From Escherichia phage vB_EcoS_PNS1: a stretch of 43,945 nt of DNA. Under the pieces are notes generated by a model. The model saw only the letters and a list, made by a program, of their open reading frames with translations, was not told the DNA's origin and did no database searches. Below, one piece after another: positions 4,561-38,388 of the stretch. Position 1 is the stretch's first letter; each line of letters begins with the position of its first letter. Position numbers and translations under genes: made by a program. Location of the stretch: sequence record NC_073063.1. One strand, 5' to 3'.

Positions 4561-5301
4561 ATGTTAACGAAAAAGGTTAAAAGCGATATCGCCGCGCACG
4601 TTGCGGCATGTCTTCCGGAAGAAGCCTGTGGGCTGGTAGTCATGGTGGGCCGCAAACAAGTATTCGTCCCATGTATGAACGTATTCGAAGACCCGACCGG
4701 CGTGCGCTCACGCAAGGACGCGTTTACTATTAGTGATATGGCCTGGATGGATGCCGAGGATATGGGCGACGTCGTGCGCGTAGTCCACTCCCATCCGGGG
4801 CAGCGGGAGCTTACCCCATCGCTTGGCGACGTTAACGGATGCAACGGCAGCGGCGTAGTCTGGACCATCACTAACGAATATGGCGACTTTATCGAGATCG
4901 ACCCTGAAGACCCGCCGCTGGTAGGGCGTCGATTTGTTCTCGGAATTACGGATTGTTACGGCCTCGTCATGGACTGGCACAAAAAGCAGGGAGTAAACCT
5001 GCCAGACTTCCGCGTGCCGTATAACTGGTGGGAGACAGGCGAAAACCTGTATATGGACAATTGGTACGGTGCGGGATTCAGGGAATGCGAGGAGAATACG
5101 CCGGGGGCAATGGTCATCATGCAGATTAGCGCGCCTGTGCCTAACCACGCTGGGATATTCCTTCCGGGCAACCAACTACTACACCATATCTACGGCAGTC
5201 TGTCGAGTGTGATACCCTTCCGGTCAGGATTTTTCCGCGACAATGTGGTTAAATGGGTACGTCATAAAGACCTACCGGGGGATATCACAGAATGGCAATG
5301 A
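4561..5301 (+). CDS. tail tip protein, lambda gpK-like (JAB/MPN plus NlpC/P60-like)
   Basis: VVHSHPG JAMM-like motif; synteny between L-like and I-like genes. Confidence 0.8.
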   Translation: MLTKKVKSDIAAHVAACLPEEACGLVVMVGRKQVFVPCMNVFEDPTGVRSRKDAFTISDMAWMDAEDMGDVVRVVHSHPGQRELTPSLGDVNGCNGSGVVWTITNEYGDFIEIDPEDPPLVGRRFVLGITDCYGLVMDWHKKQGVNLPDFRVPYNWWETGENLYMDNWYGAGFRECEENTPGAMVIMQISAPVPNHAGIFLPGNQLLHHIYGSLSSVIPFRSGFFRDNVVKWVRHKDLPGDITEWQ

Positions 5302-9755: not shown

Positions 9756-9998
9756 TTAATAATCAATGACGCAGTTTGAAGGCGAACCAATCCTTCGGTG
9801 TTCGTGGCTAATCTCCTGGCACCACTGACCCGTATAAGGTAGCTTTTCGGTATCGTAAACCAAAGACCCGTCTTCATGTCGCTCAATAGGCTGAGGTATT
9901 ACACCCGAATTTGGAACGCCTGTGTTTACGCCATTGCCACATGCTGTCATCAGAAGGCACGCCGCGGGTATTATCAGATTTTTGATTAAAGTTTTCAT
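9756..9998 (-). CDS. small lipoprotein, candidate Cor/Llp-like superinfection exclusion protein
   Basis: Internal ATG at 9998 with GGAG RBS gives 80 aa starting MKTLIKNLIIPAACLLMTAC (signal peptide plus lipobox-like Cys); sits between J and tail fiber genes. Confidence 0.55.
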   Translation of the reverse strand: MKTLIKNLIIPAACLLMTACGNGVNTGVPNSGVIPQPIERHEDGSLVYDTEKLPYTGQWCQEISHEHRRIGSPSNCVIDY

Positions 9999-10078
9999 GG
10001 TATAATCTCCGGTATTGGGTTGAGTTTTAGTATTACACCGCTCAATCAAGAATGCAACCAATTTAAGAGGATTTAGCT

Positions 10079-12726: not shown

Positions 12727-12778
12727 TATGTTTTCCTTTTTAGTGGGGGCGGTATTGCCCCCGACGTGATTAAGATAC

Positions 12779-12800
12779 TGCAACCAACCTATTGGTTGCA
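12779..12800. promoter_or_regulatory. palindromic operator-like site TGCAACCAA-N4-TTGGTTGCA
   Basis: Inverted repeat with 9-bp arms, upstream of the minus-strand gene starting at 12726. Confidence 0.4.
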
Positions 12801-14397: not shown

Positions 14398-14478
14398 CGT
14401 GTTGTCTCCAGGTATTAAAAAAGGCGTCCAAACCGGACACCCTTAAGATAATGCAACCAATATTATTATGCAACCAAT

Positions 14479-17355: not shown

Positions 17356-17395
17356 CTCTAAAATCCTCGATATGGCTAACCGGCACACTATACCG

Positions 17396-17674
17396 CTACG
17401 CGACCAATTCAGCAACCAATAAATCACAGTCGGCTATGTTGTCGATAACGCGAACGTCAGCACCGCGGCGGGCCATTCTCTCATGCTCACGTACCTGGTG
17501 CGGCTTCGGTTTTCCTCCTTGGCGCTTCACTTCGACGAACACTATTTTGCCGTTGATGATAATAATCAGGTCGGGCGCACCCGCGCGCCCCTCCCATGCC
17601 AGTTTTCGGCAGAATCCGCCGACCTCTTTCACCCGTTTCATCAGGTGACTTTGAATCTTGCCTTCTGGTGTCAT
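17396..17674 (-). CDS. VRR-NUC domain nuclease
   Basis: 92 aa from ATG 17674; D...EVK PD-(D/E)XK core in a VRR-NUC-sized protein; AAGGA RBS. Confidence 0.75.
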   Translation of the reverse strand: MTPEGKIQSHLMKRVKEVGGFCRKLAWEGRAGAPDLIIIINGKIVFVEVKRQGGKPKPHQVREHERMARRGADVRVIDNIADCDLLVAELVA

Positions 17675-20630: not shown

Positions 20631-20797
20631 TGCTTTATCCTCACTACGGCGTCAGCGCTGCCGATCATGGAGAAGATACCGTCGGAAAGGGTTATCTCCT
20701 CGCCGTTGTTGCGAATCTCGGCGACTGTGAAATATTCCCCCAGTAGCTTAGACCATACCTGCATTCCGACTTTCACTTCGCTGGCTTTAATACGCAT
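20627..20797 (-). CDS. small hypothetical protein (56 aa), translationally coupled to DNA polymerase
   Basis: ATG at 20797, stop TGA overlaps polymerase ATG (ATGA); not in the ORF track (below size cutoff). Confidence 0.35.
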   Translation of the reverse strand: MRIKASEVKVGMQVWSKLLGEYFTVAEIRNNGEEITLSDGIFSMIGSADAVVRIKQ

Positions 20798-20814
20798 TTT
20801 TCATTGTCCTATTA

Positions 20815-20845
20815 AAAAGCCCGCATTAAGCGGGCTTGAATAGTG
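20815..20845 (-). terminator. rho-independent terminator (minus strand)
   Basis: Stem gcccgc/gcgggc with loop ttaat followed by T-run on the minus strand, after gene 20856..21632. Confidence 0.5.
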
Positions 20846-20855
20846 GGCTTTGCCC

Positions 20856-21632: not shown

Positions 21633-21722
21633 TTTCCAATTCCTCATTTTCACATGTATCGGGGTTATTGGAAGCCACCCCGTTCGGCTTGGTTGCTAAT
21701 CTACTTGGTTGCGCCTAAGCGG

Positions 21723-21965
21723 TCAAGCATTTTCATTAAAAAGATTCCGGGTCACGTAGTTGGTGGCGTTCTCGATCCAGCTTAACGGCGGGCGTTCGAT
21801 GTTCTTTTCCACCCAATCGACGGCAACTTCGCTATAGCCGTCATCCAGCCAGCGGGTCGGATGGCGAATCATCCACGCCACCATTAACACGCCTTGCACG
21901 CAATGCAGGATAAAGCCCAGCGCGCCGATCAAAAACATCAATAAGATTGCGAATACTTTATTCAT
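21723..21965 (-). CDS. small membrane protein
   Basis: 80 aa with hydrophobic N-terminal helix (FAILLMFLIGALGFIL); GAGGA RBS. Confidence 0.4.
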   Translation of the reverse strand: MNKVFAILLMFLIGALGFILHCVQGVLMVAWMIRHPTRWLDDGYSEVAVDWVEKNIERPPLSWIENATNYVTRNLFNENA

Positions 21966-23388
21966 TACTTAAGTCCTCGTCGGTAGCTTCGGACCACGCG
22001 GGGCGTGGGTCGTCTATAGGGGCTAATACCGGTTTAGCCGGTGCGCGCGTGATTTTATCACACAATTTCGCCCACACTTTCGGCTTCTCTTCCTTCAATA
22101 CCTTCTCGGCATCAGTAGGGCTGAGTAATGTTTCTTTGTACATAACATCGCGCTTGATCCGGGCCTTCGTGAAGATTTCAATCACTTCGCTTTCGTCCGC
22201 CCACTTGCGGATCCCTTCCTTACCGGCGACCATCTTGAGGCCCAGCGATTCGCCGTCGCCCGCCATTACCGCCTTGAATACCGCGTACTCGATAGCCTTG
22301 ATGTGCTGGCGCATTGCGTCCAGACCCTCATATGCCTTGCGCAGTTCCGCCGCGCTCATAGCGCCTGGTGCCGCTTCTTTCTTACCACGCTTCGCACGTC
22401 GTGCCGCTTTCCTGGCTTCGCGGGCCGTATTGCGGTCGTGATTGGCGCATTCTTCCTCTGTCGCGATACTCACGTCGTCTCCCAGGTCTTCGTCTGTTGC
22501 CGTTGGTGGGGTCATCGTGTCGATTGCGGCCTTAGCGCGGGCGCTACACTGATCCGCAAATCTGCACCACTGACACGCATCAACGCTCGGTCGGAAGTCG
22601 GCACGGGTGAGTCCCTTCTTGCCGCGGGCGTACGCTTCCAGGGCGGCGATAGCACGCTTGGACGCAAACTTCGCGAATATCTCCAGCGCTTCCACTGTAA
22701 TATCCCACTCCGATGCCCCGCCGCAATACGGCTGGAAGATGACCAGTCGCACGGTCGTAATGTCGTACATGGTTTGCAGCTTGCGCAGCAGGCCGAGCGC
22801 GTACAACATAAGCTGTTTGTTTTTTTTCGCCTCTACCTTATGTCGCCCGGTCTTCAGGTCGCCAACAATCAGCATGTACGTGCCGTCGGTCTTCTTCATG
22901 ACCATGACCATATCGGCAGTGCCGAACGTCTTAACCCGGTTGCCGTCGATCTCGAAGCCAGAGTGTAGGACGCGGGTAAGATCGGCGCGCATCTCAAGCT
23001 GGACAAACTCCGCCACTTCGAGAAGCGGTCGCCAGTGGTCAATGTACGCGTCGCACTGTTTCACCATATCGTCGTTGACCAGTACGCCGCCTTTCGGTGC
23101 TTTCGGGTGCGCCTTTACTGGCCCCTTGCCTTCATTCTCGACGTAACATCCTTTACACGTCTTTGCTGTTATCAGCTTTTCACCGGCGATAATGCGGTTT
23201 AGCACCACTTCAGATACGGTGTGCATACTCGTACCGTTAATCGCGGCTTGCCCGGATTCGTTCGGGATATCTTTTTCTACCACCAGGGCGGCGGGACACC
23301 CCATCCATTTTTTAGCACCTGATGGGCCAAGTAATGAGTGTTCCGTATTACTACCGGATTGCGTTTTACGTTTTGGTTTAATCGCCAT
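21958..23388 (-). CDS. PD-(D/E)XK nuclease, DUF2800/Cas4-like, with C-terminal cysteine cluster
   Basis: 476 aa; N-terminal SGSNTEHSLLGPSGAKKWMGCPA and CQWCRFADQC cluster; typical neighbour of DUF2815 and PolA in phage replication modules. Confidence 0.75.
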   Translation of the reverse strand: MAIKPKRKTQSGSNTEHSLLGPSGAKKWMGCPAALVVEKDIPNESGQAAINGTSMHTVSEVVLNRIIAGEKLITAKTCKGCYVENEGKGPVKAHPKAPKGGVLVNDDMVKQCDAYIDHWRPLLEVAEFVQLEMRADLTRVLHSGFEIDGNRVKTFGTADMVMVMKKTDGTYMLIVGDLKTGRHKVEAKKNKQLMLYALGLLRKLQTMYDITTVRLVIFQPYCGGASEWDITVEALEIFAKFASKRAIAALEAYARGKKGLTRADFRPSVDACQWCRFADQCSARAKAAIDTMTPPTATDEDLGDDVSIATEEECANHDRNTAREARKAARRAKRGKKEAAPGAMSAAELRKAYEGLDAMRQHIKAIEYAVFKAVMAGDGESLGLKMVAGKEGIRKWADESEVIEIFTKARIKRDVMYKETLLSPTDAEKVLKEEKPKVWAKLCDKITRAPAKPVLAPIDDPRPAWSEATDEDLSNE

Positions 23389-23545
23389 TATTCCACCCTT
23401 GAAAATTGAGCAATGTAATAATCGTGTTCAACATTGTCCCGCTTCGCGTCTTCGTTCATTGTCAAAGCCAGTTCTCATGCCTGATTATTTCTGGTAGCTC
23501 GTCGCCAGTGATACGGCAGCGAAATAAAACGAAAAATATAGCCAT

Positions 23546-23797
23546 TTATTTTGTCTCCCAGCGGTCAATTGTTTTTGCTTCGGATGCAACGGCGAAGCGA
23601 ACATATTCCAGATTGGAGTCAGCCCAAATATAAAAGTCGGGATTAGTAAAGGTGGTGCGCTTAATTTGCGCGGGGGTGTTGCGGCGTTTATCAATTACGG
23701 CAACGCGCGACTGAAAGCTGCCGATGCGTTCGAATAGCCAATAATATGGGCGCTGGTCGCGGGAATCCACCGCCTCGATTAGCGTGAAGCGTGCCAT
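23546..23797 (-). CDS. hypothetical protein
   Basis: 83 aa, ATG 23797 with GAGGA RBS. Confidence 0.5.
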   Translation of the reverse strand: MARFTLIEAVDSRDQRPYYWLFERIGSFQSRVAVIDKRRNTPAQIKRTTFTNPDFYIWADSNLEYVRFAVASEAKTIDRWETK

Positions 23798-23810
23798 TGT
23801 CTCGTCCTCT

Positions 23811-23837
23811 AAAAATAAGCCCGCAGATTAGCGGGCC
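23811..23837 (-). terminator. rho-independent terminator after first early gene (minus strand)
   Basis: Stem ggcccgc/gcgggc followed by T-run on the minus strand. Confidence 0.45.
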
Positions 23838-23844
23838 GGATATA

Positions 23845-24357
23845 TTAGTCTTCCAGTTCGAAATATGTTTCGACGATTTCTTTCAGATCTTTGTGGAAGT
23901 CTTCTACGTCGTCATCTTCCAGTTTTGCGATCGATTTGATCTCGAACGCTTCCAGCAGGTCGTCAAATTCGTCGTTGGCATCGTCGTCATCACCACCGGC
24001 GATAATCGCGGCATACTGTTTGATTTCGTCGCGCATCTCTGCCAGCGGGTCGGCATCTTTCTTACCTTTGCCTTTCGCCGGTGCTTTTTTACCCTTCGCC
24101 GGTTTTTCGTCTTCGGCTTCTTCATCGTCGTCATCTTCTACGACTTCTTTTTTGGCCTTACCTTTAGCCGGTGCTTTTTTGGTTTTCGCCGGTTTTTCGT
24201 CTTCATCGTCGTCATCTTCTACGACTTCTTTTTTGGCCTTAGACGGCTTCTTGTCTTCCTGCTTACCAACGGCAGCGCCAACGGTTTCATAATGCTTAGC
24301 GATGGTTTCCAGTGCTACTACGCCGCGAGTGATCAGGTTTACGATTTGCTCAAACAT
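23845..24357 (-). CDS. acidic tandem-repeat protein, first gene of the early operon
   Basis: 170 aa from ATG 24357 (GGAGA RBS); two copies of KKEVVEDDDDE(D/E)EKPAK.KKAPAKGK plus acidic C-terminus; an upstream in-frame ATG at 24537 has no RBS. Confidence 0.6.
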   Translation of the reverse strand: MFEQIVNLITRGVVALETIAKHYETVGAAVGKQEDKKPSKAKKEVVEDDDDEDEKPAKTKKAPAKGKAKKEVVEDDDDEEAEDEKPAKGKKAPAKGKGKKDADPLAEMRDEIKQYAAIIAGGDDDDANDEFDDLLEAFEIKSIAKLEDDDVEDFHKDLKEIVETYFELED

Positions 24358-24553
24358 GGTATATCTCCGATTGGTTAAGTTTATGTGTCGGCAGTAAACT
24401 TCGTCGGTGGCCTTAACATAGTGCCAGGTTACGCGTTCTCCCTTTCGGGTAGTGGACCTGGTTATATAATCACGGTTGGGAATCCTGACACTTCGATCCG
24501 GCCCCTGCGTTGCCCCTCTCCAGTTTGCGTCCTGCATCCTGTCGACGAGGTGA

Positions 24554-24582
24554 ATATTAGATTGGTTGCAGAAGGGAGTCAA
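24554..24582 (-). promoter_or_regulatory. sigma70-like early promoter (minus strand)
   Basis: Minus strand reads TTGACT, 17-bp spacer containing CTGCAACCAAT, then TAATAT. Confidence 0.5.
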
Positions 24583-24590
24583 CAACTAAT

Positions 24591-24627
24591 TTAAAAAAAA
24601 AAGCGCCGAAGCAAAATGCGACGGCGC
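24591..24627 (-). terminator. hairpin plus T10 run (minus strand) upstream of the early promoter
   Basis: Inverted repeat gcgccg/cggcgc followed on the minus strand by ten T. Confidence 0.4.
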
Positions 24628-24758
24628 TAACCAATAAGAGACAATGAGACGGGAGTATTATTACACGCGTTCGCGCCCGTTTCAATATTCCAAAGGAGTT
24701 GACACCCCGCGGTTTTAGGTGTAGTTTCGTTGGTCATTAACCAACCGGAGACAGAATA

Positions 24759-25088
24759 ATGAATATCAACGACGCAATCGAAATGTTAACTAAAACTGTT
24801 TGCAGTGAGACTAGCCGGTCCTGGGCGTATACCGATGCCGTGGGTGCGGTGCTATTTGAAATCGAACGTCTGCGACTTACCGAAAAAGCATTGCGCGCGA
24901 AGCTGGAATTACTCAACGGTACGGCAGCCAGCAAGCTGCAAAAACACAATGAAGAAATGGAAGAATACAAAAAACAGGTTATCCGTCTACGTGAGGAAGG
25001 TAAATCCTGGGCCATGATCGCCGAGCTAACCGGAATTAATCAGAGCACAGTGCGCTCATGGGTACGCAATAATAAAACTTCTAAGTAA
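24759..25088 (+). CDS. HTH DNA-binding protein, candidate transcriptional regulator
   Basis: 109 aa; C-terminal SWAMIAELTGINQSTVRSWVRN helix-turn-helix; first plus-strand gene after the divergent region. Confidence 0.6.
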   Translation: MNINDAIEMLTKTVCSETSRSWAYTDAVGAVLFEIERLRLTEKALRAKLELLNGTAASKLQKHNEEMEEYKKQVIRLREEGKSWAMIAELTGINQSTVRSWVRNNKTSK

Positions 25089-25098
25089 GGCCACGGCA

Positions 25099-27363
25099 AT
25101 GAGCTTAATTAAATTCGCTGTAACACGACCCGCTAAAAAAGGCGAAAAAGCCAGGGCGGAAAACTTCCAGATGACCACCGATGAATTTTTCGAATTTATC
25201 AATGACGCGAAAGAAATCTCCTCGGTGCATATCAACAAGACGGAAGATAAAGCCGAGTATGCGCGCCGCAAGCGTAAGGCCGATGGCATCGTGGCGTATA
25301 CCAGTGACGGCTTACGCCGCAAGACCAGTGCGGTGGACCGCTCGATCCTGTTCTTCGATATTGACCGCACCGACACCCGCACCTTACGCCGCTGCCGTAA
25401 GGCTTTCATCGACGCGGGGCTGGAGCACGTATTCCACACCACTACGGGCGACCGCCACCCGCTGAAGGGCGGAACGCGTTGCGCCCGTTTCCTGGTGCTC
25501 ACTGACAAGCCTGTCCCGGCGGAAGACCTGGGCCGTGTCCAGTATGCGCTATTACACCAACTGGGTCTGTCAGATGTGGACTTCGACGATTGCACGAAAG
25601 ACACAAACCGCCTGATGTACCTGCCGCACCAGCAATCGGTTATTAAGTGCCACTATGGCAAACGTGCCAGTGTCCGTCGTCTGCTTCGCCTGGCGGATAA
25701 GCTGGGGGTGGAGAAGGAGGAAGTCCGCCGCGAACTGACCAAGGGCGACGACGCCGTGGCAGACGGCATTCTGGACTGGTGCTTCCAGGCGGGATTCGAG
25801 GAGTTATCTTCCGGGCGGGGCTATGAAGTGCCGTGCCCTAACGAACACCTGCACAGCGGCGAAGGGTCCACCGCCATAATGGTCAAGGATGGCGAGATCC
25901 GTTTCAAGTGTATGCACACCGGCAACGAGTGCTGCTCGGAGCTGAACAGACACCAGCACCTGGCGCTCCGTCTTATCGGTATCCCGGACCACCTGAACGT
26001 CGAGCCGCACAACATGTCACGTAAGCAAATCGCCGCCATCCTGCCAGGTCTGGACGACGAGGAAGTCGAATCATTATATGATCATATTGTTGATGCGGTA
26101 GGCGACGGCGAAGAATACGGCGTGTGCACCGATTCGGATCTGGATAACGAGCCGGTCGCACTGTTCAGCAAGCACGACCCGATCATCGAAGGTCTGATTA
26201 ACTTTAAATCGACCTGGTATCTCGCCGGTGAGTCGAACATTGGTAAGTCTTTCTATGTGCTGGGGCAAATGGCTTCAGTATCTGCCGGTATTCCGTTTGG
26301 TGGGGCGAAGGTCGTCCAGTGCCACAACTTCTATTTCGATGCGGAAGGTGGTGAAGCCTCTAACCAGCGTAAAGAAGCATTGCAGATTAAATACGAGCAC
26401 GACCTGGATAAGCTGCACATTATCGATCTGCAATCACGCGGCTGGGATATCACCAGCAAATCAGGCTTGCGCGAAGTTATCAGCTTTATCAACCGCACCG
26501 CTAACGGCGAACCGGTTGGCCTGGTGGCGTTCGACTCACTCAACCAGACTGTTGCGTTGCGGTCCGCGGATGCTAAACCGTTCGACGAGAACAACGCCAG
26601 CGATATGGGTGAAGTGGTCAAAGCGCTGAAGGCCATCGCGGAAAATACAGGTGGCAGTGCGGGCGTCATCCACCACCCGGCGAAGGGTGCAAACGGCAGC
26701 AGAACCCCACGCGGGTCCGGCGCGCTGCATGGTGCTGTCGATTCTGCGTTCTTCCTGGAACAGCCGGACGACAACCAGCCAGGCCAATTGAACCTGTATC
26801 ACGAAAAGGCACGTAACGGCATCAAGCAAGCGCCGCGAGGCTTCGTCCTGCTCAAGTGCAAGGTGAAGGTGGATCTCCGCAAGTCAGAAGCGTTCGCGTC
26901 GCACCAGTCCACCAGCACCGGGCCAGACTTCGGTGACGTGGTTGCCGGTTGGGACGTCAAGCCAATTGCATCCACGCCACGCGACGAGACTCTGTATCTC
27001 GTACCGGTCGCCCTGGCACCGTTCGCCATCGAACAGGCAAAGTCCGCTGGCAAGGCCGCAGTTAAGGAAGAGAACGCCGCAGGACCGCGCAATGAAAAAG
27101 AGAAAGTGCTCTATGCGGCGCTGGAAAAACTGATGGAAGATAACCCGGACAATACCGGATTCAGCAAATCGGCAATTGTCCGCCAGGCTGGACTGGCAAA
27201 AGGTGGAACATCGACGAAGGCAATCGACGATATGGTCGAGCGCGGCGTACTCGGTTTTTATACAGACCCACACACCGGAGCCATCTATGGGTCGTCGAAT
27301 ATCGTCATCAAAACGAATATACCCATCACGCTTTCGGCGACCGATGACGACCTGAAAGATTAA
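25099..27363 (+). CDS. primase/helicase-type replication initiator (RecA-fold ATPase domain)
   Basis: 754 aa; Walker A GESNIGKS, Walker B-like LVAFDSLNQ; central Cys/His cluster; iterons begin at its stop codon. Confidence 0.85.
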   Translation: MSLIKFAVTRPAKKGEKARAENFQMTTDEFFEFINDAKEISSVHINKTEDKAEYARRKRKADGIVAYTSDGLRRKTSAVDRSILFFDIDRTDTRTLRRCRKAFIDAGLEHVFHTTTGDRHPLKGGTRCARFLVLTDKPVPAEDLGRVQYALLHQLGLSDVDFDDCTKDTNRLMYLPHQQSVIKCHYGKRASVRRLLRLADKLGVEKEEVRRELTKGDDAVADGILDWCFQAGFEELSSGRGYEVPCPNEHLHSGEGSTAIMVKDGEIRFKCMHTGNECCSELNRHQHLALRLIGIPDHLNVEPHNMSRKQIAAILPGLDDEEVESLYDHIVDAVGDGEEYGVCTDSDLDNEPVALFSKHDPIIEGLINFKSTWYLAGESNIGKSFYVLGQMASVSAGIPFGGAKVVQCHNFYFDAEGGEASNQRKEALQIKYEHDLDKLHIIDLQSRGWDITSKSGLREVISFINRTANGEPVGLVAFDSLNQTVALRSADAKPFDENNASDMGEVVKALKAIAENTGGSAGVIHHPAKGANGSRTPRGSGALHGAVDSAFFLEQPDDNQPGQLNLYHEKARNGIKQAPRGFVLLKCKVKVDLRKSEAFASHQSTSTGPDFGDVVAGWDVKPIASTPRDETLYLVPVALAPFAIEQAKSAGKAAVKEENAAGPRNEKEKVLYAALEKLMEDNPDNTGFSKSAIVRQAGLAKGGTSTKAIDDMVERGVLGFYTDPHTGAIYGSSNIVIKTNIPITLSATDDDLKD

Positions 27364-27500
27364 TTTGTGCGCGCATTGGTTGCCGATATGGGAATTCCCA
27401 TATCGCTAAAAGATTAATTTGTGCGCGCATTGGTTGCCGATATGGGAATTCCCATATCGCTAAAAGATTAAATTCTGCGCGCATTGGTTGCCATTTAGGG
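27361..27500. repeat. tandem 54-bp iterons each with a 20-bp perfect palindrome; candidate replication origin
   Basis: Units at 27361-27414 and 27415-27468 are identical, third partial; palindrome GATATGGGAATTCCCATATC at 27385-27404 and 27439-27458; each unit carries ATTGGTTGCC. Confidence 0.8.
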
Positions 27501-27544
27501 TGTTTTTATCCGGTCGTATTGGTTGCCGTGTAGTGTAAATATAA

Positions 27545-27740
27545 TGAATAGTTATGCAGTTTTATTGCATAAAGTAAGCGGGACAGAAAGCGGGACAAAC
27601 AAGGGGCGGGACAAAGCGGGACAGCACCCCTGTCCCGCCCCGGATGACGCGGCCTGGCGAGGAGCGGGACAGGCGGGACAAACCCCAGTCTTTCAGACTA
27701 GACGGGGGGTCTGTCACCCCCCTCGTCTGAGACTGCATAA
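27545..27740. repeat. GCGGGACA repeat array with palindrome GGGACAGCACCCCTGTCCC and terminal hairpin; copy B
   Basis: About 190 bp, about 85 percent identical by eye to the 3-prime part of 113-432; palindrome at 27618-27636. Confidence 0.8.
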
Positions 27741-27894
27741 AATCCGGTATTGCAAAATACACGGCAGCATGTTGCGGATCGCGGTCGTCGCTGAACTAGG
27801 CAACCAATGCGAGATGCAGAACGGGGTGTGAAAAATGCAGTTTGCAGATTCAGCAGATAGCGATCAACTTTTTCATACGCGTGATTAATATTGG

Positions 27895-27923
27895 TTGCAT
27901 CCGCCCTGACACACTGCTATATT
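27895..27923 (+). promoter_or_regulatory. candidate promoter for the small-gene block
   Basis: TTGCAT, 17-bp spacer, TATATT; overlaps two ATTGGTTGCA motifs. Confidence 0.4.
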
Positions 27924-27950
27924 GGTTGCACACCAACAGGAGGGCGGAAC

Positions 27951-28130
27951 ATGAAAACCGAAATGGCTGATAAGCACGAAATCAAGATCGGCGATACGGT
28001 AGTCCACAACGGGGAGCTTCGCACTGTGTGCAAGCGAGCGTTTAGCATCGATGAATTTATGGGCCTGCTACTTTGGGGCGACAGCTATCGTTTAGGGTAT
28101 AAACTGGTTGAGAGGGTTACGGAACTATGA
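27951..28130 (+). CDS. hypothetical protein
   Basis: 59 aa from ATG 27951 with AGGAGG RBS. Confidence 0.5.
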   Translation: MKTEMADKHEIKIGDTVVHNGELRTVCKRAFSIDEFMGLLLWGDSYRLGYKLVERVTEL

Positions 28131-28453
28131 AAGCGATTATCTGGAATTACGCAATGGCTATGGCGGCGGCACAAGAGGCGGCGGAGTTCGCCGGTGAAGG
28201 AGCGGAAGCGGTCGAAAGACTAGCGGCAGCGTGGTCCGTTGTTCGCGTCACGCAGCAGGCCATCGCTTGTATGCTTGAGCGCCGCTTCGATACGACGGCA
28301 GAGATCCTGCCCCTGGCGAACGCAATCCAGGACTACGCGATGGCGTTTGCCCGTGAGCGCCTGGCGTATCGCTTCGGGATCGGCGAGACGGCAGCAACAA
28401 ACGTTGCCCGGATTAAAGCCCAGCGCGAACTTTTCGCCCAGCTTGCGAAATAA
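28127..28453 (+). CDS. hypothetical protein
   Basis: 108 aa, Ala-rich helical; ATGA overlap with upstream gene. Confidence 0.5.
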   Translation: MKAIIWNYAMAMAAAQEAAEFAGEGAEAVERLAAAWSVVRVTQQAIACMLERRFDTTAEILPLANAIQDYAMAFARERLAYRFGIGETAATNVARIKAQRELFAQLAK

Positions 28454-28462
28454 GGGGCCAAA

Positions 28463-28732
28463 ATGAGCCGTAGGCGCGCTAAACAGCTTTCCTGGCATAT
28501 TCCACTGCATTGCCTACGCATATGGGCTAAGAATGCGGCTGAGGGCGATTCTGTGTTCTGGAGCTATCGCGACGATGTGAAGCCGTTGACGCAGACACGC
28601 TACTTGCACCAGTTCGCAGCAAAACACGATTTCAGGGTGCGGACTTCCTTGCAACCAATGGGAATCCGTATTACATTACGCCGGAAGCCCGCCGTTGAGC
28701 GGGTAGGCAAACACTGGAGACTGAGCAAATGA
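28463..28732 (+). CDS. hypothetical basic protein
   Basis: 89 aa, Arg/Lys-rich; AAGGGG RBS. Confidence 0.5.
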   Translation: MSRRRAKQLSWHIPLHCLRIWAKNAAEGDSVFWSYRDDVKPLTQTRYLHQFAAKHDFRVRTSLQPMGIRITLRRKPAVERVGKHWRLSK

Positions 28733-28881
28733 CACCAATGCAAAAAACAATAATGGCGGGATTCTCGCAGGAGTTTATAGACCTGGAATCCTGCCATGAC
28801 GCCTACAAACATTACGGCATCGCTACTGTGTGCGATGGCGACACGAAAACTGCCGATGAGATTGAGGAGACAGAACAATGA
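28729..28881 (+). CDS. small hypothetical protein (50 aa)
   Basis: ATGA overlaps on both sides (28729 and 28878); not in the ORF track. Confidence 0.35.
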   Translation: MTPMQKTIMAGFSQEFIDLESCHDAYKHYGIATVCDGDTKTADEIEETEQ

Positions 28882-29087
28882 AATTACTATTCCGCCGCAA
28901 ATCGGACGGGCGCATTCTTAAGCCGATACAGACCCTTGACGCATACGTGCGCCTACAACAACCGGCAAGCAAAAAAGTATTCCGCGCGCCAACAAGCACG
29001 CTGCCACAGTTCTTCACAGTACACTCCCACGATATCGAGCGTGGCGATGTGCTGCGTGATATTCGCGACGGCAGTATGTGGGGGTAG
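28878..29087 (+). CDS. hypothetical protein
   Basis: 69 aa, coupled to upstream ORF. Confidence 0.45.
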   Translation: MKLLFRRKSDGRILKPIQTLDAYVRLQQPASKKVFRAPTSTLPQFFTVHSHDIERGDVLRDIRDGSMWG

Positions 29088-29138
29088 CCTGGCGGCACTG
29101 GTGCTGTTGGCGTCGGTTATTAGTCTGGTTAAATACCT

Positions 29139-29438
29139 ATGGGGCAGATTATGATTCATGATGTGATTTATTGGTTTGGTATGGCTAGCATGTTATGCCT
29201 GGTTACGGGAGTGCTGGGCGCAATATGGGTATTCCTGGTATGGCCCGCGGTAGAAGCCGCCAGCATTACCCGCATGACGTTCCAGATATACAAGCGCCGT
29301 GGAATCACGGAGCACCCGACCAGGTTGCGCATGTGGTGGCTGTGGTATCGGGATATGATAGGCGGTCGAACATTCGAAGCCGTCCGTTCATCCGGGTGGG
29401 AGTGGAAAGGCGTCGGCAAGTGGTCCGTTTTCGATTAA
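29139..29438 (+). CDS. membrane protein
   Basis: 99 aa with hydrophobic N-terminal segment and Trp-rich region. Confidence 0.45.
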   Translation: MGQIMIHDVIYWFGMASMLCLVTGVLGAIWVFLVWPAVEAASITRMTFQIYKRRGITEHPTRLRMWWLWYRDMIGGRTFEAVRSSGWEWKGVGKWSVFD

Positions 29439-29455
29439 TTATGCAAGCGTGATAT

Positions 29456-29490
29456 AGTCCCAGTGAGCTAAAACTTACTGGGACTTTTTT
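29456..29490 (+). terminator. hairpin plus T6 immediately upstream of holin-like gene (attenuator)
   Basis: Stem agtcccagt/actgggact then tttttt, ending one base before ATG 29491. Confidence 0.5.
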
Positions 29491-29781
29491 ATGGATAAGC
29501 TAAACGAGTGGCTATTCGCCCTGGCATGTCTGGCGGGTGGCTTCGTAGGCGCACGCATTCATGGCGATGCTACGAAAGGGCCGCTAAACTTCGTTTTGTA
29601 TGTTGTAGTTGGCTTCCTGTGTGCCATATTTGGCGCACCGGCTATCGCTGAGTGGGCTGGTTTGTCGGGTGAGCGCACTGTCGCCGGTTTGGGCTTCGTA
29701 ACCGCGATCTTCTGGATGCCAATCGCCGACCGGATCAGGGAGACTATTGCGTCGTTCCGACTTCCGGGGGGTGCAAAATGA
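29491..29781 (+). CDS. holin-like membrane protein
   Basis: 96 aa with predicted transmembrane segments; directly upstream of endolysin. Confidence 0.5.
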   Translation: MDKLNEWLFALACLAGGFVGARIHGDATKGPLNFVLYVVVGFLCAIFGAPAIAEWAGLSGERTVAGLGFVTAIFWMPIADRIRETIASFRLPGGAK

Positions 29782-30023
29782 TTATCTCCGTCCTGTTGTT
29801 TGTTATCATCGGGGCTTCGTCCCTGTTTAACGTGTATGCGCCGTCCGTCCAGGATGGCATTTTCGGTCGGGTGCTGTATCTGTTAACGGCAATGGTCTGT
29901 ATTATCGGATTGTTGCAAACAGGAGACGTATCTGATACCACCTGGACCGCGTTAATATGGCTGTTTGCATTGCGCACACTGCGTAATGCTGTTTTGAATG
30001 GGGTAAAACATGCGATTCAGTGA
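29778..30023 (+). CDS. membrane protein (holin/antiholin candidate)
   Basis: 81 aa, two hydrophobic helices; overlaps neighbours on both sides. Confidence 0.45.
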   Translation: MIISVLLFVIIGASSLFNVYAPSVQDGIFGRVLYLLTAMVCIIGLLQTGDVSDTTWTALIWLFALRTLRNAVLNGVKHAIQ

Positions 30024-30501
30024 TAACGGTCTCCGATTTACGGCAGCATGGGAGGCGTTCAGCCCGGTGCCGTATTTCGCGACCAAGAAAGAGCAGGCCC
30101 GCGGCCTGTACACCTGGGGTTATGGGCACACCGGCACTAATCCGCCTCGAAGCATTACCCGTGCGGAAGCGCTGGAACTGCTCAAGCGCGATGTGGCGTA
30201 TGCCGAGGACTGGGTGAACAAATACGCACATCCGAGCATTAACCAGGCGCAATTCGACGCGCTGGTGGACCTGGTAATCAACGCCGGTCCTGGTCCGATC
30301 GTACCGGATGACGTCGCTAACGATTTCGATGATGCGGTGCGACTGGGCGACTGGGCGAAGGTCCGTGCTACGCTGCCGCAGTTCCGCAAGCAAGGCGGGG
30401 AAGTGCTTAAAGGTTTGGTCCGCCGAGCAATCGGCAGACAGGCGTTGTTTGATGGTAAGCAGTGGGACGTTGCCGAGCGAATCGGGCGTAACGCCGCATA
30501 A
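30010..30501 (+). CDS. endolysin, phage lysozyme (GH24-like)
   Basis: 163 aa; E...D...T catalytic spacing with TWGYGHTG motif. Confidence 0.85.
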   Translation: MRFSDNGLRFTAAWEAFSPVPYFATKKEQARGLYTWGYGHTGTNPPRSITRAEALELLKRDVAYAEDWVNKYAHPSINQAQFDALVDLVINAGPGPIVPDDVANDFDDAVRLGDWAKVRATLPQFRKQGGEVLKGLVRRAIGRQALFDGKQWDVAERIGRNAA

Positions 30502-30516
30502 TACGAGGGGCACGAT

Positions 30517-30684
30517 ATGTTGAAAAGTATTCTTGATCATAATGCGGAAGCGCTTGCCGCACTGGCTAAAACCGAAGATCCTGGCGCACGCGCTATCATC
30601 GCGGACACTATCAGCCACGCGGGGGTCTTCGATGCGAAGCTGCCAAGCCCACCACCGCAGGAAGAATCTGGTCCTGCAGCGTAA
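30517..30684 (+). CDS. small hypothetical protein (55 aa)
   Basis: ATG 30517 with GAGGGG RBS, followed by terminator; preferred over the overlapping track ORF 30533..30724. Confidence 0.35.
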   Translation: MLKSILDHNAEALAALAKTEDPGARAIIADTISHAGVFDAKLPSPPPQEESGPAA

Positions 30685-30690
30685 ACAATC

Positions 30691-30717
30691 AAGCCCGGTT
30701 AATTCCGGGCTTTTTAT
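30691..30717 (+). terminator. rho-independent terminator after lysis genes
   Basis: Stem aagcccgg/ccgggctt with loop ttaatt followed by tttttatt. Confidence 0.6.
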
Positions 30718-30779
30718 TGCTTGACTTGCAACCAACATAGACGCCATACTGCGACAAATCAACGAGAGGAGTAATCAAG

Positions 30780-30860
30780 ATGGCACGTAAAGATATTTGG
30801 GTATTAGCGATCTGGACCACCGCGGCTTTTATCGGCATGGTTATTTGCGAATTGAGATAG
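30780..30860 (+). CDS. candidate 26-aa hydrophobic peptide
   Basis: ATG 30780 with GAGAGGA RBS; MARKDIWVLAIWTTAAFIGMVICELR; TTGACT -35-like element at 30721. Confidence 0.25.
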   Translation: MARKDIWVLAIWTTAAFIGMVICELR

Positions 30861-30921
30861 CCCGCCGCCATACGGACCGTGGTATATTGTCCCCGGTCCA
30901 CTAATCAGGAATTAATTAAAT

Positions 30922-32064
30922 ATGCACCCGCAAACTAAAATTACCGATGAGCAATTGATCGCAGAAATTCAGGCAGGGACTACGGTTAAAGAGATTGCGA
31001 AGAAGTACGGCATTGCACTTCGAAATGTCTACATGCGCAAAGCCCGCCTATCAAAAAAGGGGATTGGTCATGGCAATGACGCCGTGATCCGTAAGCGCGT
31101 TGCCGATGGCTTTGGGGTTAAGCGCGTATCGGCCCTGGTGCGCGGCAATGGCGAAGAGGTCATGTCGTGGGTCATCACTGAGCAGGACAAGGAGCGCCAA
31201 CTCGAAGCAATGCGCGCTGTTGTCGAGGGTATGAACAGCGAAATCACACCGGCAGCGCCAGTAAAAGCCCCGCCAGTACCGATCCAGGCGCTCGACTTGC
31301 TCAACCTGTACACCGTGTCAGACTTCCACCTGGGCATGTTGGCATGGGGCGAGGAGACTGGCGAAGACTGGGATATGGCGATTGCCGAAGACCTGTTCTA
31401 CCGCTGGTTTGTCGAAGCCTTCGCACGCGCCCCGGACGCAGGCACTGCCGTAATTAATATCCTCGGTGATATGGCCCACTTTGATAGCCTCGATGCTGTC
31501 ACTCCGGCAAGTGGTCACATACTGGACGCCGACACCCGCTACCAGAAACTGGTCCGATACATGATTCGCATGGTGCGCAACGTCGTCGAACTGGCGCTGC
31601 AAAAACACCACAAAGTCAAACTGCTAATCGTCCAGGGAAATCATGACGAGTCGGGTATGATTTGGCTGGCTGAGATGTTCAATACTCTGTACGAGAACGA
31701 GCCGCGCGTCGATGTAGATACGTCCCCGGACGTCTACAAAATGGTGCAGCACGGTAAGACCACGCTATTCTTCCACCACGGGCACAAAGCGCGATTCGAT
31801 GCTATCGAGCAGGTTATGATCGCTAAATTCAGACAGGAGTTCGGGTCGAGCGAATACAGCTACGCGCACGTAGGCCATTTGCACCACCAGAAGATTGTCG
31901 AGTCTCGCAACATGATTGTTGAGCAGCACCGGACGCTCGCAGCGAAAGACGCCTACGCCAGTCGTGGCGGTTGGATGTCCGGTCGCAGCGCAAACGTCAT
32001 CACCTATAGCGCCAACTACGGCGAAGTAGCGCGCTTAACCATTAGCCCGGAAATGTTGAAGTAA
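30922..32064 (+). CDS. HTH-domain protein fused to calcineurin-like metallophosphoesterase
   Basis: 380 aa; N-terminal HTH (TVKEIAKKYGIALRNVYMRKAR); motifs DFH, GDMAHFD, GNHDE, HHGH. Confidence 0.7.
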   Translation: MHPQTKITDEQLIAEIQAGTTVKEIAKKYGIALRNVYMRKARLSKKGIGHGNDAVIRKRVADGFGVKRVSALVRGNGEEVMSWVITEQDKERQLEAMRAVVEGMNSEITPAAPVKAPPVPIQALDLLNLYTVSDFHLGMLAWGEETGEDWDMAIAEDLFYRWFVEAFARAPDAGTAVINILGDMAHFDSLDAVTPASGHILDADTRYQKLVRYMIRMVRNVVELALQKHHKVKLLIVQGNHDESGMIWLAEMFNTLYENEPRVDVDTSPDVYKMVQHGKTTLFFHHGHKARFDAIEQVMIAKFRQEFGSSEYSYAHVGHLHHQKIVESRNMIVEQHRTLAAKDAYASRGGWMSGRSANVITYSANYGEVARLTISPEMLK

Positions 32065-32194
32065 CGGCAACCCGTAAGCCTCCCAGCCTGCCGATTTGGT
32101 GGGCTTTTTTGTGCCTGTTATAATCCCCATTAGATGGCAGGGCCGTCTCCTATGTTGCCGATGGTCGGCGCATATGAACAAAAGGGCTTATATC

Positions 32195-32746
32195 ATGGCA
32201 GAAATCAAAGTTAAAGGCCGTCGCGCCAAACTGGACGGACGAGTGGCAGTAACCCCGCGCCGTAAACCAGGCGAGCAAACAGAACATACCAATCTCGGAC
32301 CGGAAATCGAGTACGGAAAGCGCCGTAAAGGCGGCAAATGTGGACGCCCTACTGACTACCGATCCGTTTACTGCGACCAGCTTCGCCGCTATTTTGCCGA
32401 CGCCGACGCCTGGCAGGTAAACTACTCCGATAAAGGCGCTGCGCAAGTAATCCCCCGCAACAAAATGCCAACCTTCGGTCGATTTGCCGCGGAAATCGGC
32501 GTGGGCGTAGCTTGCCTGTATCGCTGGGCGCGTGCGCATGAGGAGTTCGCCGAGGCGATGGCGGACGCTATGGAGTTGCAGAAAACTTTCCTGATGGAAG
32601 CTGGCGGCGTGACCATCGCGGCGGGATTCGCTACCTTCCTGCTTAAAGCTAACCACGGCATCCGGGACGATGTACCGCTGGATGACGACGAAGATGATAA
32701 CGGCGACGTCGTTGTCGAACCTACAGGCAAAGGCCAGGGTGAGTAA
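32195..32746 (+). CDS. terminase small subunit
   Basis: 183 aa from ATG 32195 (AAAGGG RBS); HTH-like PTFGRFAAEIGVGVACLYRWAR; acidic C-terminus; directly upstream of large terminase. Confidence 0.75.
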   Translation: MAEIKVKGRRAKLDGRVAVTPRRKPGEQTEHTNLGPEIEYGKRRKGGKCGRPTDYRSVYCDQLRRYFADADAWQVNYSDKGAAQVIPRNKMPTFGRFAAEIGVGVACLYRWARAHEEFAEAMADAMELQKTFLMEAGGVTIAAGFATFLLKANHGIRDDVPLDDDEDDNGDVVVEPTGKGQGE

Positions 32747-34131: not shown

Positions 34132-34142
34132 GGAAACCGACC

Positions 34143-37184: not shown

Positions 37185-37196
37185 TGGCCCCTTTTC
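37173..37196. terminator. bidirectional hairpin terminator between spanin genes and convergent minus-strand gene
   Basis: Stem aaggggcc/ggcccctt with loop gtaat, T-run downstream. Confidence 0.6.
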
Positions 37197-37197
37197 G

Positions 37198-37962
37198 TTA
37201 GCGCGGAATGCCGCAAATCTCGTTAAGTGTTTTCACGTCCAGCGCCACTGCCGTGGATTTTGGCTTGTCCGGGTACGGGATGAATTGCTCGACTTCAGGC
37301 CATGCCTTAATAAGCTTCTTGTCAGTATTGTGCATGTCCAGTACACCGGTAACGGTGAGTTTGAACGCATCATACTTCGCGCGCAACTCGCGACGTGCCT
37401 TGTCGTTGCGGTCCAGTCGCTTACAGAAGTCATGGTCCGCCGGGTAGTCTACGCGACCGCGTGGGAGATATATCGGCAGCGCTTTCCCTTCCTCGTCCAC
37501 TTCGCACACTGACGCGAGCATAACTGTCTCGAACCCCGGAACGATATCGCCGAGATCAGGCGCGAGCTTATTCATATATTTCTCTTCCCAGTATCCGCGA
37601 TGCACGCGGAATTGGCGACCGTCACCGCTCAAGGACAAGGTGCGAACATTGCCGCCTGCGTTGATTTCAAAGGTGGCGTCGTAAACGCTGCCGATACCCT
37701 TCGGGCGGTCGGTGTTATAACTATACGTCGCCTTGTTGGTGTATACGCTGACGCCGTACATCTGCGACTGGTCATCGCGGATTGCCTTGATATGCTCGCG
37801 GAGCGCTGCGAACGTGCGAATGCCTTCCGGCATACAGTCAAGCGTGATTGCGTACGCCAGATCGCGTGAGTCCATCATGATTTGTTTGGCTTCGGTTGCG
37901 ATTTCGTGGTCGCGCAGGATGTTAGCCAGAATCTGATTTTTAATGTCTTTCGTCAGTCTCAT
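37198..37962 (-). CDS. hypothetical protein (opposite-strand island in head module)
   Basis: 254 aa, no motif recognised; flanked by hairpins. Confidence 0.55.
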   Translation of the reverse strand: MRLTKDIKNQILANILRDHEIATEAKQIMMDSRDLAYAITLDCMPEGIRTFAALREHIKAIRDDQSQMYGVSVYTNKATYSYNTDRPKGIGSVYDATFEINAGGNVRTLSLSGDGRQFRVHRGYWEEKYMNKLAPDLGDIVPGFETVMLASVCEVDEEGKALPIYLPRGRVDYPADHDFCKRLDRNDKARRELRAKYDAFKLTVTGVLDMHNTDKKLIKAWPEVEQFIPYPDKPKSTAVALDVKTLNEICGIPR

Positions 37963-38001: not shown

Positions 38002-38316
38002 TTAGTTGAATTTGATGTTGCCACCGGTGGAAGTTAAGCGGGCACATACTGCTTCAACGGCATCGACGCACATGAAATCGTTAAAGGCTTCGACCAGGGC
38101 GTTTATGAAAGATGCCGGAACCAGGCCGCAAGCCGGATTATCGAATGTTGCGGAGTTGATCGCCGCTTTTGCCGCTTCGGAAGCATTCATGCTCTGGCAC
38201 AGATTCAGCGCTTCCGCGTTACGCATTGCGTGAAAGGTAAAGGTATTCGCTACGGTAGCTTTATTGAAACGGGCCATTGCGGCGTCTACTGGAGTTGCTA
38301 CGGTCATGTTAGTCAT
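38002..38316 (-). CDS. hypothetical protein (opposite-strand island)
   Basis: 104 aa from ATG 38316 with AAGGA RBS; upstream region carries the TATATTGGTTGCACACCAACAG element. Confidence 0.45.
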   Translation of the reverse strand: MTNMTVATPVDAAMARFNKATVANTFTFHAMRNAEALNLCQSMNASEAAKAAINSATFDNPACGLVPASFINALVEAFNDFMCVDAVEAVCARLTSTGGNIKFN

Positions 38317-38388
38317 TTTGTTTTCCTTCATATCTCTGTTGGTGTGCAACCAATATAAAGCAACCAACATCCGCAACGCAAGCGAATT

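Follow-up and report, generated by a model that had tools for sequence, protein, structure and literature searches.

A ten-base motif shared by predicted promoters and an origin-like region of Escherichia phage vB_EcoS_PNS1, a candidate site for a single regulatory protein

Some replication initiators bind sites that double as operators; known examples are the DnaA boxes in E. coli promoters, the Rep iterons and operators of P1 and pSC101, and the alpha protein of P4 with its ori and crr. Here, we describe a 10-mer, ATTGGTTGCA, with an 8-base core, TTGGTTGC, that recurs in Escherichia phage vB_EcoS_PNS1 (sequence record NC_073063.1; the whole stretch of 43,945 nucleotides is referred to as the window). 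Compared with known systems, the motif appears to work most like these doubly used initiator sites. As in those systems, a short asymmetric site is clustered at an origin-like region beside a replication gene, extra copies lie over promoter cores, and one factor could link replication state and transcription. Unlike in those systems, two repeat families share the region, and the promoter-embedded family does not track the DNA-binding domain of the helicase-primase; the site also occurs in about ten unrelated promoters, beyond an initiator's own, and its binding is here a prediction. On balance, we lean towards reading ATTGGTTGC(A/C) as the site of one phage-encoded, sequence-specific DNA-binding protein from the replication/early module, linked to the origin and copied into promoters.

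The window is a complete genome of a Dhillonvirus, a lytic E. coli siphophage like HK578, JL1 and SO-1; over 6 kb it shares about 91% identity with phages SM_S22 and Over9000. Its two ends are identical (1-125 = 43820-43945, an overlap of 126 bp), and it is therefore a complete assembly, circularly closed or permuted. Genes were mapped by projecting the Over9000 annotation onto the window (the curated map). Searches of 5,426 complete E. coli genomes and of PLSDB plasmids found no Dhillonvirus DNA. Hence the phage is strictly lytic and a factor reading the motif would serve the lytic programme; for the same reason, a lysogeny-type global repressor was rejected. Dhillonviruses (HK578, JL1, SECphi4, BASEL Bas14-18) are in wide use for phage-defence and phage-therapy work. 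Our literature searches returned no description of the motif and no promoter map, regulator, origin map or transcript starts for Dhillonviruses, and as far as they showed, the motif, the predicted promoter map and the candidate origin are new for this group. The motif yields a testable map of at least ten predicted promoters and one candidate origin, and points to one factor governing most transcription units.

The 10-mer occurs exactly nine times in the window, against 0.16 expected from dinucleotide-preserving shuffles, and 17 times with at most one mismatch (3.2 expected; shuffle maximum 8). A reading of the sequence alone had reported a recurrent motif at many gene starts, and the shuffled controls bear this out. 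The core TTGGTTGC has 21 copies, 17 of them in non-coding DNA, which makes up 6.7% of the genome on the curated map; with an intentionally over-generous map of open reading frames (ORFs), 11 of the 21 are non-coding (P = 3e-8). Non-coding DNA holds 17 exact core copies and two one-mismatch copies, the latter at chance level, and so the sites are essentially all-or-none. In a pool of 115 partly orthologous sites from six genomes, information content is limited to positions -1 to +8, (A/G)TTGGTTGC(A/C), and the flanks carry neither an extended nor a symmetric signal. The motif itself is asymmetric, with symmetry only at 12779-12800 and in the near-palindrome of a 22-mer described below. As the mutant counterpart of the ATTGGTTGCA duplex we define ATTGGCCGCA.

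Spacings between copies are 9, 12 (inverted), 13, 14, 16, 17, 31, 35 and 54 bp, and helical phasing is absent. Such variable, unphased spacings suggest independent recognition of single sites by one protein module each. The phi29 p4 and P2 Cox/186 Apl proteins offer a partial parallel, as one small protein there represses and activates according to the position of its site, and Cox boxes are asymmetric repeats of about 9 bp. However, p4, Cox and Apl act through phased arrays or bending at few promoters, whereas in the phage many promoters have single exact copies, and the spacing varies. Homology to these three proteins was not detected.

To place the motif relative to promoters, we combined a consensus scan of 20000-39000 with hexamers read from the sequence. 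Pairs of -35-like and -10-like hexamers 16-18 bp apart, as in sigma-70 promoters, lie upstream of correctly oriented genes, and -10-like hexamers are concentrated at three offsets from the motif, each with 1.4 occurrences expected among the 115 sites. At offset +27 (25 sites), TTGCAN serves as the -35 hexamer with a 17-bp spacer; at offset +10 (16 sites), the motif fills the spacer and ends 1-2 nucleotides (nt) before the -10; and at offset -4 (40 sites), it overlaps the -10. The consensus scan independently finds three TTGAC promoters with inverted motif copies, at 24582(-), 21726(-) and 30721(+). Altogether, the motif takes at least five distinct positions, in both orientations, as well as forming a promoter-free cluster, rather than keeping to a single place, and like an operator it overlaps core promoter elements.

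The sequence-only reading had suggested one regulator, or else a phage-specific promoter class, coordinating both strands. The connection to both strands stands: the motif is tied to promoters on the + and - strands, is almost entirely intergenic and is conserved across the genus. The promoter class stands only in part. The motif does provide the -35 hexamer of some promoters (25 of the 115 sites, with the -10 at 17 bp), but the 10-mer is also found in spacers, over the -10/+1, inverted in TTGAC promoters and in the non-promoter cluster. Moreover, Pfam and PHROG scans of the early ORFs and of those with no assigned function, together with the annotations of relatives, gave no phage RNA polymerase, sigma factor or sigma-appropriating pair of the MotA/AsiA type; the only sigma-like match was region 4 alone, in a 109-amino-acid (aa) protein considered below. 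Given these varied positions and the absence of such a polymerase or sigma factor from the scans, we reject a separate promoter class and regard the motif as a probable operator-like site within ordinary sigma-70-type promoters. The most economical reading is that many transcription units are coordinated by one sequence-specific factor.

A related comparison is with the middle promoters of T4 (a MotA box at -30, a sigma-70 -10 and AsiA). There too a box of about 9 bp replaces a good -35 while a normal -10 is kept, and with TTGCAT-17-TATATT a comparable switch would be possible, in which box-dependent promoters take over from early consensus promoters. At the promoters 27895, 17415-, 14473- and 10057-, the motif covers about -39 to -30, and its other copies are positioned otherwise. 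Unlike MotA boxes, it also occurs in spacers, at +1, inverted in strong promoters and in the cluster beside the putative origin, and neither MotA nor AsiA homologues appeared in the scans described above.

Motif copies are conserved among the Dhillonviruses. The core occurs 17 times in Over9000, 23 times in LM40P1, 21 times in SO-1 and 19 times in HK578 (about 1.9 expected in each), at orthologous promoters. In alignments of ten promoter regions, the motif and the -10 are invariant while the intervening spacers drift, and the share of invariant columns is 72% in the motif and 53% in other intergenic sequence (P = 3e-6). Several LM40P1 promoters have two direct copies where the window has one. 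The motif is not enriched in a T1-like coliphage that shares a gene with the region (3 copies vs 1.9 expected), nor in Salmonella phage Jersey.

The one group of copies away from promoters lies at the helicase-primase gene (25099..27363, +), whose product has a primase-like N-terminus, a conserved Cys/His cluster, an AAA_25 helicase and a C-terminal winged-helix-like domain. Immediately 3' of its stop codon are four direct copies of ATTGGTTGCC on the + strand (27375..27527; starting at 27375, 27429, 27483 and 27518), of which only three had been counted, as iterons, from the letters alone. Three of the four fall inside a 54-bp tandem repeat (27355-27492; 2.6 units, 97% identity). Next in order come a block of a second repeat, GCGGGACA, a conserved hairpin (about 27688-27738), an inverted ATTGGTTGCC copy (27799..27808, -) and the promoter at 27895, so that motif copies stand on both flanks of the GCGGGACA block. 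Each 54-bp unit contains one ATTGGTTGCC, and the two full units each also contain a perfect 22-bp palindrome, CGATATGGGAATTCCCATATCG, whose conservation does not extend to LM40P1, a divergent Dhillonvirus.

Across the genome, GCGGGACA occurs 21 times (2.1 expected), clustered in two non-coding regions: 118-375, before the tape-measure gene (9 copies), and 27578-27680 (7 copies). Both clusters are followed by the same hairpin (cagtctttcagactagacgggg...cccctcgtctgagactg), and the annotation of phage SO-1 names the two stretches repeat regions A and B, which resemble the ori and crr of P4. The GCGGGACA repeats, more than the motif copies that had been called iterons, are probably the true iterons of this origin-like region, and the layout resembles an origin in which iterons are flanked by accessory-factor sites. 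In the window, four direct copies and one inverted copy of the motif make up the cluster (27375-27808), and a cluster is found at the same place in at least 20 related loci, in nearly all relatives, with lineage-specific middle bases.

Distant relatives (L007, L026, L027, L028, L051 and others) were collected through helicase-primase similarity, and the L026, L027, L028 and L051 lineages were compared over about 20 kb each. Identity of the helicase-primase to that of the window is 67% in L007, 49% in L026 and 45% in L051. Across these lineages the motif varies in its middle dinucleotide (TTGG-TT/CC/CA/CT-GC), which is uniform within each genome. L007, L026 and L051 have TT; L026 contains 9 and L051 16 copies of TTGGTTGC, including TTGCAT-17-TATAGTTGGTTGCA and an inverted spacer copy at the promoter of the single-stranded DNA (ssDNA)-binding protein. 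In L027, TTGGTTGC is absent and the CC variant TTGGCCGC occurs 11 times (0.66 expected) in the same kinds of place, the orthologous ssDNA-binding-protein promoter among them. The CA variant TTGGCAGC of L028 and the CT variant GTTGGCTG of a Salmonella-phage-like clade occur only in the cluster after the helicase-primase gene, and in some lineages, as in phage Jersey, no variant cluster was found. Promoter-embedded copies are a trait of L027 and the TT lineages. All motif-bearing lineages have just one location in common, the cluster beside the helicase-primase gene, which is therefore probably the original one. Similarly, since TT is shared by the deepest branches, it is probably the ancestral variant. 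The four variants are natural specificity variants that could be used for swap experiments. In L007 (12516), L026 (12269) and L027 (12260), the final codons of the helicase-primase gene contain one motif copy, read as Glu-Leu-Val-Ala, or as Glu-Leu-Ala-Ala in the CC lineage; coding sequence and genome-wide variant change together.

A variant that is uniform within each genome and switches between related phages is strong evidence that the predicted binder is phage-encoded, and argues against a host factor or a pure RNA-polymerase element. A host DNA-binding protein that recognises the motif and is exploited by the phage would explain why TTGGTTGC is retained across lineages whose proteins are only 44-50% identical, and why candidate phage binders could not be pinned down. 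We nevertheless judge it very unlikely, because of the switching dinucleotide and because the T1-like and Jersey phages of enterobacteria show no enrichment. We know of no E. coli regulator whose consensus the motif matches, and look-alikes (sigma-54, NtrC, Tus/Ter, IHF) were dropped as their spacing or core bases did not fit.

The same comparisons bear on an explanation without any binder, in which the motif is a lineage-specific flavour of sigma-70 promoter (an extended -35, ATTGG-TTGCA) spread by cassette duplication. Such an element would fit the TTGCA(a/t) with which the motif ends on its 3' side, as at 25 of the 115 sites a -10-like hexamer follows after 17 bp; it would also fit the 22-bp cassette, which stands before two unrelated genes in identical form, like a mobile promoter cassette. 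However, the full 10-mer is equally conserved in spacers, after -10 hexamers, inverted in TTGAC promoters and in the promoter-free cluster. The TTGGCCGC variant of L027 offers no -35-like sequence, yet occupies the same places, and L028 and the CT clade have copies beside the helicase-primase gene only. This explanation consequently appears improbable, if marginally less so than a host factor.

What, then, might bind the motif? One candidate, as binder or as partner, is the helicase-primase, whose gene alone is always found beside the motif cluster. It is possible, though we think it unlikely, that the replication machinery (the helicase-primase or a partner) reads the motif, and that the promoter copies are secondary initiation or loading sites reached through the transcription bubble or an R-loop, serving as origin elements in place of operators. 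The only shared location is at or just past the 3' end of the helicase-primase gene, beside the iterons, and the last-codon copy in L007, L026 and L027 follows the variant of the genome (gaa-TTG-GTT-GCc vs gag-TTG-GCC-GCa). Primase zinc fingers read template sequence, and the invariant Cys/His cluster of the helicase-primase may be compared with them. In the 22-bp cassette, the motif would occupy the non-template strand from about -9 to +1, a part of the stretch melted in the open complex. On the other hand, many promoter copies are at a -35 or in a spacer, which stay double-stranded, and in either orientation; no strand bias is seen around the putative origin; and lineages with 72-81% identical helicase-primases lack the cluster.

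The C-terminal winged-helix-like domain also argues against that explanation, since it tracks the second repeat family instead. This family likewise changes by lineage (ACTCGCAA, GGCGGACAA, GGGGGAGA and others), and GCGGGACA and its equivalents follow the C-terminal domain while the motif does not. The domain was modelled as a winged helix with a predicted local distance difference test score (pLDDT) of about 80-88 in the core, and fold searches gave weak E-values of 0.3-1; it appears committed to the second repeat family. We rejected it as the binder of the motif, because its sequence groups with the GCGGGACA/ACTCGCAA/GGCGGACAA repeat types. Specificity positions in the helicase-primase that separate TT lineages from the others amount to eight scattered columns, and are uninformative as the TT lineages are the deepest branches.

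The sequence-only reading had proposed testing binding by a helix-turn-helix (HTH) protein encoded at 24759..25088 (+). This 109-aa protein, the product of the first gene of the rightward early operon, has a long helix and a C-terminal HTH, and could in principle bind ATTGGTTGCA and, like Cro, act globally to repress or activate. Among the proteins of the genome, it alone has a Pfam-recognisable HTH (HTH_23 5e-7, Sigma70_r4_2 2e-6), and its model (pLDDT 86) shows a long helix followed by a three-helix HTH of the Hin/IS/LuxR/sigma-4 type, which can read asymmetric sites of 9-12 bp; Foldseek and PDB sequence searches gave generic HTH matches only. The last 60 residues are near-invariant across lineages with unrelated N-termini, and L007, which carries the same motif, has 84% identity in the HTH domain against 67% in the helicase-primase. 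Furthermore, the base before the core is A in lineages with the 109-aa protein and mostly G in lineages with an HTH_3 protein.

Against this, L026 and L051 have an unrelated Cro-like HTH_3 gene at the position of the 109-aa gene, yet keep TTGGTTGC and the promoter layout. A homologue of the 109-aa protein was found neither in L026 by tblastn nor within the L026 and L051 stretches compared; a search for the family listed 24 clusters, in none of which the longest contig matches the L026 or L051 contig in length. Presence of the family coincides instead with the GCGGGACA repeat type. A non-homologous replacement that preserves specificity for some 20 dispersed sites is improbable. The motif is thus unchanged where the putative regulator is exchanged, and the recognition helices of the HTH_3 proteins do not sort with the TT/CC/CA/CT variants. 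The 109-aa protein is accordingly an unlikely binder, and the proposal is not supported.

The surroundings of this gene do recall the lambdoid OR/OL operators of Cro and CI: sites overlap the -35, spacer and +1 of divergent early promoters, and a small HTH gene comes first in the rightward operon. However, the phage site is asymmetric and mostly single, whereas lambdoid operators are 17-bp palindromes; it is spread genome-wide in a lytic phage, whereas lambdoid operators are confined to the immunity region; and the adjacent HTH gene can be swapped without a change in the motif. In their defining features, a Cro/CI regulon, a phage-polymerase promoter class and a MotA/AsiA system all fail to match the motif.

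Two further routes to the binder were abandoned. Gene presence or absence against motif presence in 20 loci was confounded by phylogeny, with lysis genes as the top correlates, and a 380-aa protein (30922..32064) labelled as having an HTH domain is a metallophosphoesterase with no HTH match. Taking the candidates together, none commands a majority of our confidence. Somewhat the largest share goes to the helicase-primase, through a part other than its C-terminal domain; another small phage protein comes close behind, then the small HTH protein just upstream of the helicase-primase, and a host factor receives only a minor share.

Returning to the reading we favour, the non-coding stretch just 3' of the helicase-primase gene would be the ancestral home of the site, where 3-10 copies flank a lineage-specific iteron block that is probably a replication origin. 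In the Dhillonvirus branch, copies of the site would then have entered the cores of ten or more sigma-70 promoters, on either strand, at fixed places: forming the -35 hexamer (TTGCAt), ending 1-2 nt before the -10 within the 17-bp spacer, lying over the -10/+1 in the 22-bp cassette TATATTGGTTGCACACCAACAG, and inverted in strong TTGAC(T/C) promoters. Most phage promoters would have at least one copy within the RNA polymerase footprint, and steric repression of the host RNA polymerase by the bound protein is therefore the most likely effect and our default reading. The factor would be made early and then shut down or throttle early and middle promoters; transcription would track the free factor, which would fall as replication multiplies the roughly 20 sites per genome. 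Promoters whose -35 is TTGCAT only may instead gain from the bound factor, giving a dual switch.

Several points weigh against this reading. TTGCAT matches the -35 consensus at 3/6 positions, with only TTG in common, and would also suit activation from a site overlapping the -35. The promoters are consensus matches, and as the 115 sites are partly orthologous across the six genomes, the offset statistics overstate independence. At the rightward early promoter, TTGACA-17-TAGTTT (about 24702-24730), the only copy is degenerate. The motif cluster is missing from some lineages whose helicase-primases are 72-81% identical, the small HTH genes and the helicase-primase C-terminal domain track the TT/CC/CA/CT series uncleanly, and gene content across the 20 loci is confounded by phylogeny as described.

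A more specific proposal, which we regard as a long shot of about the same standing as direct reading by the replication machinery, is that a replication-module protein acts as a transcription timer, with promoters blocked and then released by titration, or with open complexes used as secondary initiation or loading sites. If so, one 10-bp word would form a replication-coupled gene-expression clock whose specificity was re-tuned in sister lineages, and a link from origin to promoters would make this a compact case of replication-coupled timing in a small lytic phage.

The most distinctive arrangement of the motif is the 22-mer TATATTGGTTGCACACCAACAG. It had been reported as identical at 27918-27939 (+) and 38336-38357 (-), each time upstream of a ribosome-binding site (RBS), and this is confirmed: nothing else in the window matches with three or fewer mismatches, and an RBS and ATG (27951 on +, 38331 on -) follow 8-20 nt past the end of each copy. 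In the first copy, the -10 TATATT (27918-27923) is overlapped by the motif (27921-27930), at about -9 to +1, followed by CACCAACAG; a near-palindrome, TTGGT-N5-ACCAA, precedes the RBS GGAGG and the ATG at 27951. A further motif copy (27890..27899, +) supplies the -35 TTGCAT (27895-27900) of this rightward promoter, TTGCAT-17-TATATT (27895-27923), upstream of gene 27951 and the genes after it. This first copy is invariant in all five Dhillonviruses, while the spacer upstream is variable. In the second copy, the -10 TATATT (38357..38352) and motif (38354..38345) are again followed by CACCAACAG; its promoter, TTGCGT-18-TATATT with the -35 at 38381..38376, serves gene 38331..38002 and the Nmad5 gene 37962..37198. 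Another motif copy, GTTGGTTGCT (38359..38368, -), lies in the spacer of this leftward promoter and ends just before the -10, about 45-70 bp upstream of the divergent scaffold/capsid promoter TTGCGA-16-TAATAT (38386-38416, +). By its layout, the 22-bp element is a predicted promoter-operator cassette of -10, motif and start site, and as such would be a ready part for engineering Dhillonviruses.

Since both 22-mers lie just upstream of an RBS and each has a 5-bp inverted repeat, they could also be viewed as a hairpin in the 5' untranslated region (TTGGT-N5-ACCAA) that controls translation or stability of the two mRNAs. The evidence effectively refutes this: predicted RNA folds are no better than those of shuffles (z = 0.36, -0.62 and 0.09, the first two for the 22-mer), a start at about the A of GCA, as set by the -10 TATATT, excludes the left arm, and most motif copies are upstream of starts or antisense and occur in both orientations. 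Searches of Rfam and for tRNAs gave no matches. We consequently attach almost no weight to an RNA-level role, on grounds of fold statistics and orientation. The 59-aa gene behind the first 22-mer (27951-28130) has about 72% nucleotide identity with many T1-like (Drexlerviridae) phages, which are motif-less, and the cassette and the gene therefore appear to be separable modules.

The remaining copies had been listed correctly from the letters apart from small slips: the copy given as 27790 is 27799-27808 (-), and that given as 28660 is 28650-28659 (-). Copies at 17411-17420 (-) and 38359-38368 (-), cores at 21689 and 21705 (+), and one at 5168 (-) had been missed. With the corrections, the 10-mers on the - strand are at 10053-10062, 12779-12788, 14452-14461, 14469-14478, 27799-27808, 28650-28659, 30727-30736 and 38345-38354, and those on the + strand at 12791-12800, 24561-24570, 27890-27899 and 27921-27930.

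Inverted copies accompany the strong TTGAC promoters. The copy at 24561..24570 (+) had been placed in an early promoter spacer, and is indeed in that of the leftward early promoter TTGACT (24582..24577)-17-TAATAT (24559..24554), at a spot where the annotation of HK578 has an orthologous promoter. The genes for the ssDNA-binding protein and DNA polymerase are preceded by the leftward promoter TTGACC-17-TAGATT (21726..21698), where two inverted cores are present (21689-21696 and 21705-21712, +): the spacer holds one of them, and the other directly follows the -10. At 30727..30736 (-), an inverted copy abuts the -35 of the rightward promoter TTGACT-18-CATACT (30721-30750), which follows a terminator (30691-30712) and precedes the metallophosphoesterase/terminase/portal operon.

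Other copies provide the -35 itself. On the - strand, the copy ATTGGTTGCT (17411..17420) includes the -35 TTGCTG (17415..17410) of TTGCTG-17-TATAGT (-10 at 17392..17387), a promoter with a conserved degenerate copy, TTGGTCGC, in its spacer; this site extends over the final codons of the VRR-NUC resolvase gene. The promoter TTGCAT-17-TATCTT has two direct copies at a distance of 17 bp (14452..14478, -): the upstream copy is the -35 (14473..14468), and the downstream copy fills the spacer and ends 1 nt before the -10 TATCTT (14450..14445), a double layout that recurs in four LM40P1 promoters. The copy at 10053..10062 (-) gives the -35 TTGCAT (10057..10052) of TTGCAT-16-TAATAC (-10 at 10035..10030), upstream of a small lipoprotein/superinfection-exclusion-like gene (9998..9756). 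The inverted pair TGCAACCAAC-ct-ATTGGTTGCA (12779..12800, both strands) has its - copy ending 1 nt before the -10 TATCTT (12777..12772), and its second copy gives a palindromic TTGCAA -35; the LM40P1 promoter there has two direct copies.

Two copies lie within genes. The inverted copy at 28650..28659 (-), inside gene 28463-28732, is kept in all Dhillonviruses checked, and the + strand there reads TTGCAA (28649-28654)-17-TACATT (28672-28677), probably an internal promoter. The core copy at 5168..5175 (-), inside the tail-assembly gene 4561-5301, has no promoter context and is probably due to chance or coding constraint; one or two such copies are expected by chance.

Some minor observations concern the early promoters. 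Just past the -10 of the rightward early promoter, TTGGTcattaACCAA (24731-24745) has the same TTGGT-N5-ACCAA symmetry as the 22-mer; a full inverted motif copy stands at its position in L007, and in HK578 it is lost. Within 20000-39000, the sigma-70 consensus is best matched by TTGAAA-17-AATAAT with TG (24685..24657, -), and about 30 nt after it comes a strong terminator hairpin with a U10 run (z = -3.4). The two early promoters would thus have between them a leftward transcript of about 55-60 nt (24592-24685, -), possibly a small RNA, which includes ATTGGTTAGC, the motif plus one additional base. In the leftward early operon, the first gene (23845-24537, -) encodes a very acidic, lysine-rich protein and contains an internal DNA repeat, GTCGTCATCTTCTACGAC, at 24127 and 24208. 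Short N- and C-terminal segments of its product are conserved in several distant lineages, less so in L027 and L028. Finally, the most frequent 8-mers of the genome, ACGGCAGC, ACGGCAAC and CGCTGCCG (24-29 copies each), recur beside motif copies in L027; their Markov expectations are near the observed numbers (14-29), and they may reflect codon or composition bias.

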